Shown here in pieces: positions 1-5,003 of a stretch of DNA of 5,193 nucleotides. Origin of the DNA: a virus. Its lineage: Duplodnaviria; Heunggongvirae; Uroviricota; Caudoviricetes. A model generated the notes under the pieces. That model saw only the letters and a program-made list of their open reading frames with translations, made no database searches and had not been told where the DNA came from. Numbering within the stretch: the stretch's first letter is position 1; each line of letters opens with the position of its first letter. The DNA is taken from IMG/VR virus record IMGVR_UViG_2548876868_000016. One strand, given 5' to 3'. The position numbers and the translations under genes are program-made.

Positions 1-392
1 CCGCAATAGCTGCAATGTCTTTCGCGCATCAGCCTGCGCATTCACCACAACGCTGATAGCATTGCCGGTGTCCGAATCGAACGGACCTTTTCCCTGCCCA
101 ACCCTCCCATCTGAATGGGACTGTCTGGAATTGAACCAGCACTTATGCCTTGCTCGTCAATGCTCTCATCGTTGCGTCCTGGTCTCTTCCCAGGCGTCAA
201 ACCGAATCGCCACGCTGGTTAGGCGTCTTATCAGCATCCTCATTGACTTGCACATTCCGGCTACCTGGTTTGTTTGCCCGAGCAAGGAGTGGATTGTCCC
301 CTTTAACGTCCCCAGACCGCTAACGACGCATGTGCCATACGCCGTGTTACAACCAACCTTTCGTTAACAACAGTCTGTTGTTTGTTCAGATA

Positions 393-673: not shown

Positions 674-709
674 CGAGAATTATGTTCGTTCTAAATCATG
701 GTTATTGTA

Positions 710-1795
710 TTACAGACACTTGACTACTGTTGAAACATCAGATTCTAGTGCTTCAATTTGTGCTCTATTAGCTTGGGTCGCCATACCATAGATAGTGTAA
801 CTCTTATGCTGCAGCCTACTTAAAGGGCATCCCTCATGGTTTATTATTGCTGCAAGAGTATTACCATCTTTGACATTTTGAACTCTCTCGAAAGTAGCCA
901 CATTTGTGAACAGATGAGGATGTGTATTTAACAGGTCATCCGTGATTCTTTTGATCTCTTCTGCATGTGATTTGAATGCTTTTGCTGCATCACTTTCATT
1001 AGTTCTTGAGCGGTTTTGTACGAAAAGGTGTAGTTCAGGTAGTTCGATAAGGTTTTGCTTTGCTTCTTTGTTGAAATCTAAGAACATTTCATCTTGTTCT
1101 GACTTGTCAATAGACACTCCATAAATAAGTTTAACAAGGTTTTTTATTCCGCGAATTGATGCAGCATCGGCAGTGCAAGGGATAATTATTCTATTTGCCG
1201 CGACTACTCCCAATTCTGTGTAGCTGGCAAAACTTGGATTACAATCAATAAAAAATGTTTTTGCTCTGTCAGAAATGTTTTTATCGGCTTCAAAAGATGC
1301 TATTAGATCTACCAGCAAAGATCGGCTTTTCTTCCATGCTTCTTTTACTGGGGATGAGCCAATGTGAGATATTAAGCGTGAACAGATATCAAGATCGACA
1401 TCACCAGGAAGAATATATAAGTTCTCTGGCATTTTTGCATTAACATCATGGGCTCGTACAAAGTAAGAAGATTCATTTCCTAAACGAGACAAAGGAGATT
1501 TGCTAAAACGCTCCTTGATATAACCTGCGATTGTAACATTTCTGTCTCGCAATTTATTTAGATTTTCTTCCCCGGTACCATTGCCACCAAGAATAATTTC
1601 TGAAACGTTTGATTGAGGGCATGAGTCAATAACCACAACATCTTGATCCGGATGAGATATAGCAAACTCAACGGCAAGATTATATGTAAGAAAAGTTTTT
1701 CCTACACCACCTTTGTTGTTCCATACTAAATATTTTGTATTGGTGGAAATCATATCTGCTACCCCATCTGTCGCTTCAGTACGTTCATTAATCAT
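710..1795 (-). CDS. ParA/MinD-family P-loop ATPase (deviant Walker A), orphan; candidate lysogen-expressed accessory gene
   Basis: 361-aa ORF with ATG at 1795-1793 and SD AGGAT 7 nt upstream. Deviant Walker A KGGVGKT at residues 28-34, switch-like IDSCPQSN, Walker B-like FFIDCNPS and the IIIPCTAD motif typical of ParA/Soj. About 100 aa of C-terminal extension beyond a minimal ParA core. No ParB-like gene or parS-like array in the window. Co-oriented with and downstream of the cI-like gene, and terminated by the hairpin at 648-673. Confidence 0.85.
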   Translation of the reverse strand: MINERTEATDGVADMISTNTKYLVWNNKGGVGKTFLTYNLAVEFAISHPDQDVVVIDSCPQSNVSEIILGGNGTGEENLNKLRDRNVTIAGYIKERFSKSPLSRLGNESSYFVRAHDVNAKMPENLYILPGDVDLDICSRLISHIGSSPVKEAWKKSRSLLVDLIASFEADKNISDRAKTFFIDCNPSFASYTELGVVAANRIIIPCTADAASIRGIKNLVKLIYGVSIDKSEQDEMFLDFNKEAKQNLIELPELHLFVQNRSRTNESDAAKAFKSHAEEIKRITDDLLNTHPHLFTNVATFERVQNVKDGNTLAAIINHEGCPLSRLQHKSYTIYGMATQANRAQIEALESDVSTVVKCL

Positions 1796-2029
1796 TATCG
1801 TATCCTGTTGTATAGAATTGTCTATTATTTATGTTTTATTTTGGTTTTTTTTGTGTTAGTAACGCACCCAAAGATAACATATGGTCTTTATCTTTTCTTA
1901 CTTAGGGTAACAGCTCAGTGTTAATCCATTTTTATGGACCAATGTGCCAAATAAAATTTGTATAAAGATTTTCTATCCTTATCTTTTATCATCTGTGCTC
2001 GTTTGCTTTAACGATTGCTAGATGCCTAA

Positions 2030-2840: not shown

Positions 2841-3104
2841 ATGTCATCTCAAAACTACACAGAGAAAGCAGTAAAGGCTGCGGGAAAGTCTTTATCTGAA
2901 GTAGCCCGTCGCTTTGGTTTTAAGTCCACTCAATCCGTCGCCAATTGGGTAATTAACAATCAAGTCCCGTCAGAACGGGTTTTACAACTTTGTGAGTTGG
3001 GAAACTGGTCCGTGACCCCTCATGAACTGCGTCCTGATATTTACCCCAATCCAAATGATGGATTACCTGAGTGCTATTCAAAAGTTAGCGGTTCAACTGC
3101 GTAA
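2841..3104 (+). CDS. Cro/YdaS-like small HTH transcriptional regulator
   Basis: 87-aa ORF, ATG 2841 with SD GGAG 6 nt upstream. HTH-like segment SLSEVARRFGFKSTQSVANWV; C-terminal HELRPD motif that I recall as typical of Cro/YdaS-type phage regulators. Divergent from the cI-like gene across an operator-bearing spacer. Confidence 0.8.
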   Translation: MSSQNYTEKAVKAAGKSLSEVARRFGFKSTQSVANWVINNQVPSERVLQLCELGNWSVTPHELRPDIYPNPNDGLPECYSKVSGSTA

Positions 3105-3132: not shown

Positions 3133-3717
3133 GTGGGTAAAGAACCTGAATGGAAAGTTGATAAGCAACCAGCATGGCTGGTGGCAGCAATACGAAGAAC
3201 GATTGCTGATTTACCTCATGGCTATGAGGAAGCAGCGGAAATTCTTGGTTTGTATAAATCTGATGATATCACCCCAGCGAAAGATCAATTGCATAACAGA
3301 CTGCGTAGCGGTGGGGATCAAATTTTTCCACTTGAGTGGGCCATGGTTTTACAGGATGCCAGTGGTACCAGGCATGTAACGGATGCGATAGCGCGTCGTA
3401 GTAATGGGGTGTTTGTGCCGCTGGTGGACATTGATGACATTGACAATGGTGACATTAATCAGCGGCTGATGGAGTCAATAGAATGGATTGGCAAGCATTC
3501 CCAGTACTTACGCAAGGCAACTGCTGATGGAGTTATTGACCAGGCTGAGCGTGAGCAAATCGAAGAGAACAGCTACCAAGTAATGGCGAAGTGGCAGGAG
3601 CATTTAACACTGTTATTTCGTGTTTTTTGTGCGCCGGAAAAGAGTAACGCCCGCGAGTGTGCAGCTCCGGGCGTCGTGGCGTCGATTGCTTCTGGTTGTG
3701 GAGAAACTAACGCATGA
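3133..3717 (+). CDS. CII-like / YdaT-like phage regulatory protein (family assignment tentative)
   Basis: 194-aa ORF, GTG start 3133 with SD GAGGA (3121-3125) 7 nt upstream. Sits directly after the cro-like gene, the slot of cII in lambdoid phages and of ydaT in Rac-type prophages. Stop codon overlaps the next start (ATGA at 3714-3717). Family not verifiable without an HMM search. Confidence 0.7.
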
Positions 3718-4072
3718 ACAGTTTAACAACACACTACCGTCGCTCGCAACTGATTGCGCTTCCTGTACCGGGTGGAAAAGCGAAGGTGGAGTATTGCTAT
3801 GCGGTGAATGTACCAGGTGACAGGGAAATTGTAACCCACAGCTTTGCAGAGTGGGCTGTGGGTGATTTCAACCGGCAGAAGGAGACAGTCCTTTGCAACA
3901 AGTTAACCGCTGGTTCAAAGATCACTACGGAGTGCCCGTCAGAGTCATTCGTTGGGAACCGGAAACACAACGGGTTATCTACCTCCGCGAAGGCTATGAG
4001 CATGAGTGCTTCAGCCCGCTCGAACAGTTTCGTCGTAAATTCAGGGAAATAGAGGTCGGTCATGAGCACTAA
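3714..4072 (+). CDS. Small phage protein of unknown function with a coding-frame switch (frameshifted gene or two overlapping ORFs)
   Basis: ATG 3714 is translationally coupled to the upstream gene (ATGA), with SD GGAG 3700-3703. The frame of ATG 3714 looks protein-like for ~60 codons ([60 protein letters not shown]) but then gives a Ser-rich low-complexity tail to the stop at 4050-4052. The -1 frame is open from 3866 to the stop at 4070-4072 and encodes a convincing sequence ([59 protein letters not shown]). A TTG at 3893-3895 is preceded by AAGGAGA (3879-3885) at 7-nt spacing. The span 3714-4072 is 359 nt, consistent with a 1-nt deletion at the T-run 3892-3894. Confidence 0.5.
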
Positions 4073-5003
4073 ATTAACCGGCTATGTATGGGATGGTTGC
4101 GCTGCGTCAGGCATGAAGTTATCCAGCGTGGCAATTATGGCCCGCCTGGCTGATTTCAGTAATGACGAAGGTGTGTGCTGGCCATCAATTGAAACCATTG
4201 CCCGCCAGATTGGCGCGGGGATGAGCACCGTCAGAACGGCTATCGCACGGCTGGAAGCAGAAGGCTGGTTAACGCGTAAGGCGCGTCGCCAGGGTAACCG
4301 CAATGCGTCGAATGTTTATCAGCTTAACGTTGCGAAGCTTCAGGCAGCGGCATTTTCTCAACTGTCAGATTCTGACCCGTCAAAATCTGACGCATCAAAA
4401 TCTGACCAGTCAAAATTTGATGCGTCGAAATCTGGCAAAAAAGCGGGTTTTCACCCGTCAGAATCTGGCGGGGATCCGTCAGTAAAATCAAAACATGATC
4501 CGTCAGATAAAAAAACTTCTCGTCCGGACGCTTCGCAACCGGACACGCAGACGGCTGAACAGGAGTTTTTAACTCGCCATCCTGATGCGGTTGTATTCAG
4601 CCCTAAAAAGCGCCAGTGGGGAACGCAGGATGATTTGACCTGCGCACAGTGGCTCTGGAAAAAAATCATCGCCCTGTACGAGCAGGCCGCCGAATGTGAC
4701 GGCGAGGTGGTTCGTCCCAAAGAACCGAACTGGACAGCCTGGGCAAACGAAATTCGCCTTATGTGTGTGCAGGATGGTCGTACTCACAAACAAATCTGCG
4801 AGATGTACAGCCGCGTCAGCCGCGATCCGTTCTGGTGCCGTAACGTGCTCAGCCCGTCGAAGCTGCGGGAAAAATGGGATGAGCTTTCCCTGCGCTTATC
4901 GCCGTCCGTCAGCACGTACACCGAAAAACGCGAAGACCCGTACTTCAAATCCAGTTACGACAACGTGGACTACAGCCAGATCCCGGCAGGATTCAGGGGG
5001 TGA
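4062..5003 (+). CDS. Replication initiator (lambda O-like; N-terminal winged-helix DNA-binding domain) with internal ori iterons
   Basis: 313-aa ORF, ATG 4062 with SD GAGGT (4052-4056) 5 nt upstream. N-terminal segment GVCWPSIETIARQIGAGMSTVRTAIARLEAEGWL resembles the HTH/winged-helix module of phage replication initiators. Iteron array inside the coding sequence encodes a low-complexity linker (SDSDPSKSDASKSDQSKFDASKSGKK). Gene order cro-cII-O matches lambdoid replication modules. Confidence 0.85.
   Translation: MSTKLTGYVWDGCAASGMKLSSVAIMARLADFSNDEGVCWPSIETIARQIGAGMSTVRTAIARLEAEGWLTRKARRQGNRNASNVYQLNVAKLQAAAFSQLSDSDPSKSDASKSDQSKFDASKSGKKAGFHPSESGGDPSVKSKHDPSDKKTSRPDASQPDTQTAEQEFLTRHPDAVVFSPKKRQWGTQDDLTCAQWLWKKIIALYEQAAECDGEVVRPKEPNWTAWANEIRLMCVQDGRTHKQICEMYSRVSRDPFWCRNVLSPSKLREKWDELSLRLSPSVSTYTEKREDPYFKSSYDNVDYSQIPAGFRG
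4365..4516. repeat. ori-like iteron array: five regular 15-bp-spaced iterons plus degenerate copies and an A-rich tract
   Basis: 12-bp cores at 4365 (TCAGATTCTGAC), 4380 (TCAAAATCTGAC), 4395 (TCAAAATCTGAC), 4410 (TCAAAATTTGAT) and 4425 (TCGAAATCTGGC), exactly 15 bp apart; each core is a partial palindrome of form TCAGA-w-TCTGA. Additional copies at 4458 (TCAGAATCTGGC) and, more degenerate, 4479 and 4503. A-rich tract GATAAAAAAAC at 4506-4516. Architecture parallels the lambda ori inside the O gene. Confidence 0.7.

Follow-up and report, generated by a model that had tools for sequence, protein, structure and literature searches.

A ParA-fold ATPase gene in the immunity region of an Escherichia coli Shiga toxin prophage is very probably the ortholog of the single-gene phage defence gipd474

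The anti-phage defence GiPD474 consists of a single gene, STM474_RS13505, in the Gifsy-1 prophage of S. Typhimurium 4/74 (Bosma, Noireaux and Bowden, Appl Environ Microbiol, November 2025; PMC12724215). The subject of the current report is a gene that lies on the minus strand, at positions 710-1795, of a 5193-base stretch of viral DNA (IMG/VR record IMGVR_UViG_2548876868_000016, referred to here as "the window"). It encodes a ParA-fold ATPase of 361 amino acids (aa), listed in RefSeq as WP_000606712.1 under the name 'ParA family protein', and, as judged by sequence comparison, it is very probably the E. coli ortholog of gipd474, i.e. a single-gene anti-phage cargo of the immunity regions of lambdoid prophages. 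The work on GiPD474 had its starting point in the poor plating of phage Felix O1 (FO1) and established that deletion of the gene restores plating and that a low-copy plasmid carrying it brings the resistance back (PMC12724215). With the plasmid alone, plating of phages FO1, Alf5 and T4 dropped by about 5 logs, whether the host was Salmonella LT2 or E. coli K-12, while T7, SP6 and S16 were unrestricted, and the range of the defence is patchy even among related groups of test phages, with T4 restricted and S16 and Jbel not, and with FO1 and Alf5 restricted and VpaE1 not (PMC12724215). In the lysogen, the transcript is present at more than 500 transcripts per million during exponential growth. 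The authors suggested that the protein, which they labeled an AAA+ ATPase with an unknown C-terminal domain, acts after adsorption and stated that its mechanism is unknown; their phylogeny already includes Escherichia homologs, in clade I (PMC12724215).

Two other described systems invite comparison with the window gene. RemAIN, from the Gifsy-1 prophage of S. Typhimurium 14028s (STM14_3218-3220), combines a ParA-like ATPase, RemA (STM14_3218), with an immunity protein and an HEPN anticodon nuclease (PMC9879122, PMC13043305). The likeness lies in the use of the same immunity-region slot, in an anti-phage defence that, for the window gene too, would be expressed in the lysogen and in the nature of RemA, which is an orphan ParA-like ATPase without a ParB. 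The difference is that RemAIN is made up of three genes, with an ATPase of 279 aa, whereas the window specifies one 361-aa protein and no nuclease. RemA is further set apart by the statement in PMC12724215 that there is no sequence homology between the GiPD474 and RemAIN regions, and membership of the window gene in RemAIN was rejected, as neither an immunity-protein gene nor an HEPN gene follows the ATPase gene. The RexAB system of phage lambda also resembles the window gene in its location, between cI and the left operator (OL), in its co-orientation with cI and, if the window gene behaves as gipd474 does, in its expression in the lysogen and in its exclusion function. The proteins, however, are unrelated, with RexAB comprising a sensor and a membrane protein and the window gene predicting a single soluble ParA-fold ATPase. 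The window protein, which has matches to ParA-type families only, was judged not to be a homolog of RexA or RexB, and the shared slot is regarded as analogous.

The window protein and the Salmonella protein are identical at 335 of 360 positions (93%), without gaps, and the window protein falls together with the S. Typhimurium proteins in one cluster at 90% identity. In PMC12724215 the family is delimited by a minimum of 70% for both identity and coverage relative to GiPD474, and the window protein passes both thresholds. The arms of the published primers for the gipd474 knockout map to positions 1755-1790 and 716-752 of the window, where they translate to DNGRVEATDRPTE and ALESDVSTVVKCL, the termini of the Salmonella proteins. 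Like GiPD474, the window protein is 361 aa long, carries GGVGKT at residues 29-34 and has a predicted fold similar to that of ParA, MinD and Soj, and the gene fits the setting of gipd474 in that it stands alone, with no conserved partner, in a prophage immunity region beside genes for a repressor, cro and cII. All features that are accessible to computation place the gene in the GiPD474 family, for which the function has already been described. The earlier note on this DNA, which was made from the sequence alone, had proposed a defence or exclusion cargo expressed in the lysogen, and this expectation agrees with what is known of the 93% identical GiPD474, a self-sufficient anti-phage gene that is strongly transcribed in the lysogen (PMC12724215). 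The suggestion in the same note that the function was an undescribed one has been overtaken by the November 2025 publication, in which a single-gene defence built on a ParA-like ATPase is reported and Escherichia homologs are placed in clade I (PMC12724215).

Despite the similarity of the proteins and of their single-gene settings beside a repressor/cro/cII module, the surroundings of the two genes differ. The repressor that neighbours the gene in Salmonella is unrelated to the window repressor, the flanks differ as well, and the window gene resides in an Stx1a phage of E. coli O157. The two loci are homologous only over window positions 709-1829, which correspond to the coding sequence plus 34 nt upstream and 1 nt downstream of it. 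Within this shared stretch the identity is 81% for nucleotides versus 93% for amino acids, and the ratio of nonsynonymous to synonymous substitution (dN/dS) is ~0.017, with synonymous sites saturated; on the basis of these values, the window allele appears to be functional and under strong purifying selection. An alignment of the upstream spacers from six loci revealed nothing in common beyond the region of the ribosome-binding site (RBS), and the spacer of the window, minus its last 34 nt, is unconserved with the Salmonella, Klebsiella, Siccibacter and Leclercia loci. Such comparisons indicate that the gene moves as a bare open reading frame (ORF) plus RBS, a form of mobility that would fit expression from whichever repressor operon receives the gene.

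The ATPase ORF occupies exactly the position of rexAB in lambda, since it is flanked by OL-like and OR-like regions that are joined by an inverted repeat. The OL-like operator region, with the palindrome GCTACTAAAAGTAGC, spans positions 393-439 at the left edge of the immunity region, and the OR-like region, with two copies of CTATTTTAAGTAG and with direct and inverted repeats, spans positions 2768-2814 (neither is assigned to a strand); a 47-nt inverted repeat with 79% complementarity, 393-439 versus 2768-2814, ties the two together. The gene for the cI-like repressor, which contains HTH_3 and Peptidase_S24 domains, extends over 2030-2734 on the minus strand if the RefSeq start is used (the open frame reaches 2791), and from its stop codon a spacer of 234 nt, AT-rich at 30% GC (1796-2029, minus strand), leads to the co-oriented ATPase gene. 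The ATPase gene has a Shine-Dalgarno sequence of its own, AGGA at 1803-1806 on the minus strand (read from the sequence), which is located 7 nt ahead of the ATG at 1795-1793 and within the 34-nt upstream stretch that is still homologous to the Salmonella loci. The repressor/defence transcription unit is closed by an intrinsic terminator at 674-655 (minus strand), in which a stem of 8 bp, including 6 G-C pairs, is followed by UUUUAU and for which the folding energy of the region is -17.7 kcal/mol (z -2.9). The earlier note had described this arrangement correctly, from the rexAB-like slot between repressor and OL-like operator, the orientation behind the repressor gene with no terminator in between and the separate Shine-Dalgarno sequence to the terminator at the end, and its estimate by eye that gene and spacer are richer in AT than the replication module was substantiated by computation: the GC content is 37.7% for the ATPase gene (27% at third codon positions) and 30% for the spacer versus 53% for the O-like replication gene (56% at third codon positions).

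No terminator-like site was found in 1796-2029, where the predicted RNA fold is modest only (z -2.55), and a scan of the spacer for sigma-70 promoters yielded nothing convincing. One promoter match, at 1824-1797, was rejected since it ends beside the ATG and thus cannot serve the ATPase gene. A scan of the whole window against Rfam detected nothing relevant. The ATPase gene is followed by the terminator and then by the OL-like operator, and all ORFs between positions 380 and 709 are shorter than 40 aa. We infer that, in the manner of rexAB in lambda, the gene might be transcribed mainly by read-through that starts at the repressor maintenance promoter and stops at the terminator at 674-655, considering that only the ORF and RBS appear to travel, that no terminator follows the repressor gene and that one does follow the ATPase gene.

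Among 5426 complete genomes of E. coli, the ATPase gene is present in 71 (~1.3%), always with at least 99% identity, and these 71 are exactly the genomes that carry the allele of the neighbouring repressor with at least 99% identity; a 92% identical allele of the repressor is found in a further 133 genomes. All but one of the 71 copies of the gene are chromosomal. The remaining copy, on the 205-kb plasmid pEND_Eco 18005 (L016; NZ_CP126947.1, 155148-171958), is part of the same prophage early region (yfdPQR, repressor, cro, O-like, Q) and has no adjoining ParB. A second ParA-like protein, WP_000167381.1 (358 aa), is encoded in 109 complete E. coli genomes, and at the sole locus inspected (L014:3753-4829, minus strand; MS20655, NZ_CP082080.1) its gene sits in the same slot behind the 92% repressor allele. 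This protein is 23% identical to the window protein, retains the Asp of a D-x-D-S-Q motif, is clearly related to the protein of known structure 3pg5 (E 1e-21) and matches only one candidate family in PADLOC, PDC-M28B, over the Walker A region only. Two distinct ParA-fold families share one defence slot. In strain TW14425 (L015:4279-4978, minus strand), which also has the 92% repressor allele, the slot holds two small overlapping ORFs of 115 and 126 aa, which exhibit no significant match to any Pfam or PADLOC family and are candidates for another cargo function.

The comparative check of slot content that the earlier note had recommended therefore shows variability among prophages with the same type of repressor, and relatives of the phage carry different immunity modules that lack the ATPase gene. 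Such dispensability of the gene, as cargo in a slot that can hold other genes, is difficult to reconcile with the possibility that it mainly serves the prophage, by tuning of replication or induction, or that it acts on host segregation or division in the manner of Soj, MinD or MipZ, with defence as a side effect. Control of replication initiators or of division proteins is a common task of ParA-class ATPases, the gene adjoins the lysis-lysogeny switch in phages with unrelated repressors, and a dN/dS of ~0.02 is more typical of housekeeping-like constraint than of proteins engaged in an arms race, all of which would suit such a role. Nevertheless, homologs are also found outside prophages, in a type I restriction-modification locus, in a small island, with insertion sequence (IS) elements and as a lone chromosomal gene, and in Salmonella the deletion resulted in phage sensitivity and expression from a plasmid alone was sufficient for defence (PMC12724215). 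We therefore consider a primary role in prophage or host biology quite improbable, and prefer to view the window gene as defence cargo.

The complete ParA/MinD ATPase core that had been recognized from the sequence is present, with all four motifs in place: K28-GGVG-K33-T34 (residues 28-34), D57-S-C-P-Q61, FFIDCNPS (181-188) and IIIPCTAD (203-210). The deviant Walker A motif with its signature lysine, K28, is conserved in 88 of 88 aligned homologs. The whole chain is predicted to be of the ParA/MinD (SIMIBI) class and to form a complete deviant-Walker-A ATPase, in that strong structural matches are all to members of the SIMIBI class (ParA, MinD, NifH and Get3) and matches to Pfam and other profiles are to ParA-type families only. 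The AAA+ label of PMC12724215 was rejected in view of these structural matches, and the Pfam model AAA_31 is a ParA-type model despite its name. The ~100 additional residues, which the earlier note had placed in a separable C-terminal region, turned out in comparisons of structure and sequence not to be an added domain; they are insertions relative to ParA/Soj, McdA and MinD (PDB 8ray, 6noo, 7npd, 2oze, 1g3r). The window protein further differs from these ATPases in having a family-specific loop, LGGNGxG, that is invariant and directly follows switch I (many further positions are invariant as well), and in having a Cys in place of the switch I Asp, and its gene is without a partner of the ParB, McdB or MinE type. 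In an alignment to 3pg5 and a Soj sequence, this residue, Cys59, stands at the second Asp of the ParA switch I motif D-x-D-P-Q, and it is a Cys in 87 of 88 members of the family, down to ~30% identity. In both Soj and MinD the corresponding Asp, D40, activates the attacking water, and its mutation results in hydrolysis-deficient, stable dimers.

The relationship to individual members of the class is a distant one. Sequence similarity to Soj stops at about residue 222 of the window protein. With regard to MinD, there are no minC or minE neighbours and no evident amphipathic membrane helix at the C-terminus of the window protein, which is acidic (...ALESDVSTVVKCL) and lies within the last core helix; identity with MinD was rejected on the score to TIGR01968, 15.9 bits versus a cut-off of 212.9, and on the lack of minC/minE. 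The top sequence match among solved structures (E 8e-6; 2.6e-7 by profile) is DIP2308 of Corynebacterium diphtheriae (PDB 3pg5), an uncharacterised ParA-like protein of 361 aa that has a similar length and a similarly expanded ParA architecture, but that is only ~20% identical to the window protein, retains the Asp of D-x-D-P-Q and stands much nearer to the 358-aa protein WP_000167381.1.

The names that databases attach to the protein ('ParA family protein', and 'ParA-like partition protein' for phrog_164), as well as the one plasmid-borne copy among 71, might be taken to mean that the element is maintained as a plasmid and that the gene specifies its ordinary partition ATPase, with ParB and parS located beyond the window. 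The window, which covers the immunity and early replication functions of a lambdoid prophage, is a 100% match to E. coli O157 strain FDAARGOS_293, where the prophage is Stx1a-converting and integrated adjoining mlrA, with genes for an integrase and an excisionase on one flank and Q, stx1AB and lysis genes on the opposite flank. As had been noted for the window itself, there is no ParB gene, and a cognate ParB or adaptor gene is likewise absent from the annotated 41-kb prophage context and from 92 homolog loci. No centromere-like repeat array (parS) lies near the gene, the sole iteron-like repeats being those at 4355-4511 in the O-like gene. The 70 chromosomal copies, and the location of the plasmid copy within the same prophage region, also speak against plasmid maintenance, which the earlier note had named among the observations that would refute its proposal. 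About 150 P1-like IncY phage-plasmids of E. coli, E. fergusonii, Salmonella and Klebsiella do carry a 35% homolog, but it lies directly after repL in the immI region (simA, icd, ant, kilA, repL; for example L097:6001-7056, CP057875.1), and none of its neighbours in a 13-kb stretch is a ParB gene. The NCBIfam model ParA_partition scores 48.9 bits versus a cut-off of 180. Assignment as a ParABS partition ATPase was rejected, the signature lysine being present but ParB, parS and the catalytic Asp of switch I missing and the score far below the curated cut-off. The partition explanation has next to no probability left and is refuted for practical purposes.

The family to which the window protein belongs is small and scattered, with 66 clusters at 50% identity (E <=1e-30, among 1.84 billion representatives), and relatives are present in 117 IMG/VR contigs and in 408 of ~186,000 species genomes, which span many bacterial phyla and include some archaea. 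The mean column identity across phyla is 63%. The family usually sits directly downstream of a repressor: in 57 non-redundant IMG/VR loci, the co-oriented upstream ORF contains HTH_3 in 39 and Peptidase_S24 in 31, and the upstream repressors of these viral loci share just 10-20% identity with the window repressor. The layout is the same in Klebsiella phage ST11-VIM1phi8.2, and in Pseudomonas phage phi297 (L098:6010-7062, NC_016762.1) a 38% homolog, named 'ParA-like partition protein', is encoded directly behind a CI-like repressor, so that the positional rule reaches beyond the phages of enterobacteria. Outside prophages, homologs were found in a small integrative island of Campylobacter, together with RhuM and ParE, and as a lone chromosomal gene in Aggregatibacter, and the Acinetobacter homolog is in the position of a late-region cargo gene adjoining HicAB. 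In alphaproteobacteria, the homolog is often accompanied by an IS1595-family transposase, a DUF6471 protein of 76 aa and a further protein, of ~142 aa, that matches HARE-HTH weakly (L009:7680-9477; L025, L052, L054, L060, L063), and this group could be an IS passenger-gene cassette. In Azospirillum thiophilum, the insertion of this group separates hsdR from hsdS/hsdM within a type I restriction-modification system. Among 148 neighbours of distant homologs that were searched with Pfam and PADLOC, there are mixed housekeeping and mobile genes and some defence genes; as no background rate is available, enrichment in defence islands is not claimed.

Three betaproteobacterial loci (Cupriavidus, L075:10001-11628; an uncultured betaproteobacterium, L079:2496-4123; Thiobacillus, L096:648-2287) have a 200-aa HEPN_RiboL-PSP gene after a homolog of 35-37% identity, with a gap of 0-2 nt or an overlap, and the pair looks like a two-gene variant, ATPase plus HEPN, that is reminiscent of RemAIN. 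These loci provide one of the arguments for the main rival explanation, according to which the ATPase is a sensor or switch that triggers a separate toxic effector, from the host or from another element, and thereby abortive infection, with no direct interference with the phage. The HEPN gene abuts or overlaps the stop codon of a family member in these loci, a ParA-like ATPase is combined with an HEPN anticodon nuclease in the same slot in Gifsy-1 of 14028s (PMC9879122, PMC13043305), and no effector domain is recognizable in the 361-aa protein with Pfam, PADLOC or profile scans. On the other hand, GiPD474 needs no other prophage gene to protect Salmonella LT2 as well as E. coli K-12 (PMC12724215), and with such self-sufficiency in the two hosts any effector would have to belong to the conserved core of host factors. 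The 92 homolog loci have no partner gene in common, where the commonest neighbour is the IS1595 transposase (7 of 92) and an HEPN neighbour occurs in 3 only. Nor are effector domains fused to longer homologs, as a Pfam scan of ten unusually long ones detected ParA-type domains only and no informative fusion. A sensor role of this kind is therefore unlikely in our estimate, and direct action of the ATPase is the reading that we favour.

The following sequence of events, which we put forward with low confidence, might account for such direct action. The protein would form an ATP-dependent sandwich dimer, and the ATP-bound state might be unusually long-lived, considering that the water-activating Asp of switch I is replaced by a Cys that is near-invariant in the family. 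Inside the cell, the ATP-bound dimer would then bind DNA or one specific phage protein and, while bound, might block a step after injection, such as replication or packaging of the phage genome, without cutting of nucleic acid by the protein itself. Extreme conservation of the family suggests that much of the protein surface is constrained by something universal, be it nucleotide, DNA or self-association.

Several considerations weigh against this reading, from the assignment of the gene to its mechanism. There are 25 substitutions relative to GiPD474, mostly in the N-terminal tail and around residues 297-302, and defence has been shown for the Salmonella allele only. Co-transcription with the repressor is deduced, and the 234-nt AT-rich spacer could conceal a promoter that a simple scan would miss. 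DNA binding, dimerisation and slow hydrolysis are predictions, for which the role of the Asp is drawn from work on Soj and MinD. A mean column identity of 63% across phyla is unusual for a protein that directly recognizes fast-evolving phage proteins, and the patchy host range would be better explained by a specific trigger or phage determinant than by a general coating of DNA.

The current observations include three lineages of orphan ParA-fold ATPases at the repressor-proximal slot, namely GiPD474 and its relatives, RemA of RemAIN and the 3pg5-like 358-aa protein. This could mean that such ATPases constitute a general class of effector-less defences expressed in lysogens, and that in the GiPD474 lineage a dimer that is impaired in hydrolysis and locked in the ATP state, by virtue of the Cys in place of the Asp, holds phage DNA or a phage protein fixed to the nucleoid. 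We regard this generalization as tentative and, taken as a whole, somewhat doubtful; if it holds, the mechanism of the GiPD474 lineage may be one unseen so far among defence systems.

The range of the family beyond the Enterobacteriaceae, the ORF plus RBS cassette, the near-invariant Cys and the second ParA-like family in the slot are new in the current analysis, and they bear on both practical and mechanistic questions. The defence gene that Shiga toxin prophages and other prophages of E. coli carry is of a type proven to act on T4-like and Felix-O1-like phages, and since these groups of phages are used for the biocontrol of O157 and Salmonella, the presence of the gene may predict failure of treatment. 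Current databases for the detection of defence genes overlook it: a PADLOC (2023) search of the window protein returned only a spurious match to Drt5 (E 0.007), and the phi297 and P1-like homologs had no match. For the question of how a ParA-fold ATPase without partner or effector stops a phage, the near-invariant Cys, the purifying selection, the mobile cassette and the wide range of the family, usually behind a repressor, might provide starting points. Beyond this, the residual interest of the locus lies in the hint that ParA-fold ATPases recur as defence genes expressed in lysogens.

Other features of the window are those of a lambdoid early region. The gene for a Cro-like regulator (2841-3104, plus strand) is divergent from the repressor gene and is followed further to the right by a cII-like gene, by YmfM and DUF4222 genes and by the O-like replication gene with internal iterons (4062-5003, plus strand). 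On the other side, downstream of the OL-like operator, positions 1-360 (minus strand, 54% GC) contain what appears to be a single gene split across three frames, the fragments of which include ...NEDADKTPNQRGDSV*, TPGKRPGRNDESIDEQGISAGSIPDSPIQMGG... and ...NAQADARKTLQLLR; RefSeq leaves this stretch unannotated in FDAARGOS_293, and in related prophages it corresponds to a frameshifted hypothetical protein adjoining yfdP. Two ORFs on the plus strand, at 3714-4052 and 3893-4072, overlap in different frames, and each has database support. The first, of 112 aa, matches phrog_1170 (1e-69) and is named YmfM in phage records, and RefSeq annotates the second, a DUF4222 ORF of 59 aa, in its place. Within the O-like gene, at 4355-4511 (plus strand), clustered short direct and inverted repeats of the CCGTCAGAATCTG / TCAAAATCTGAC type overlie a low-complexity stretch of the protein that is rich in Ser, Asp and Lys, and by analogy they look like origin iterons of the kind present in lambda O.

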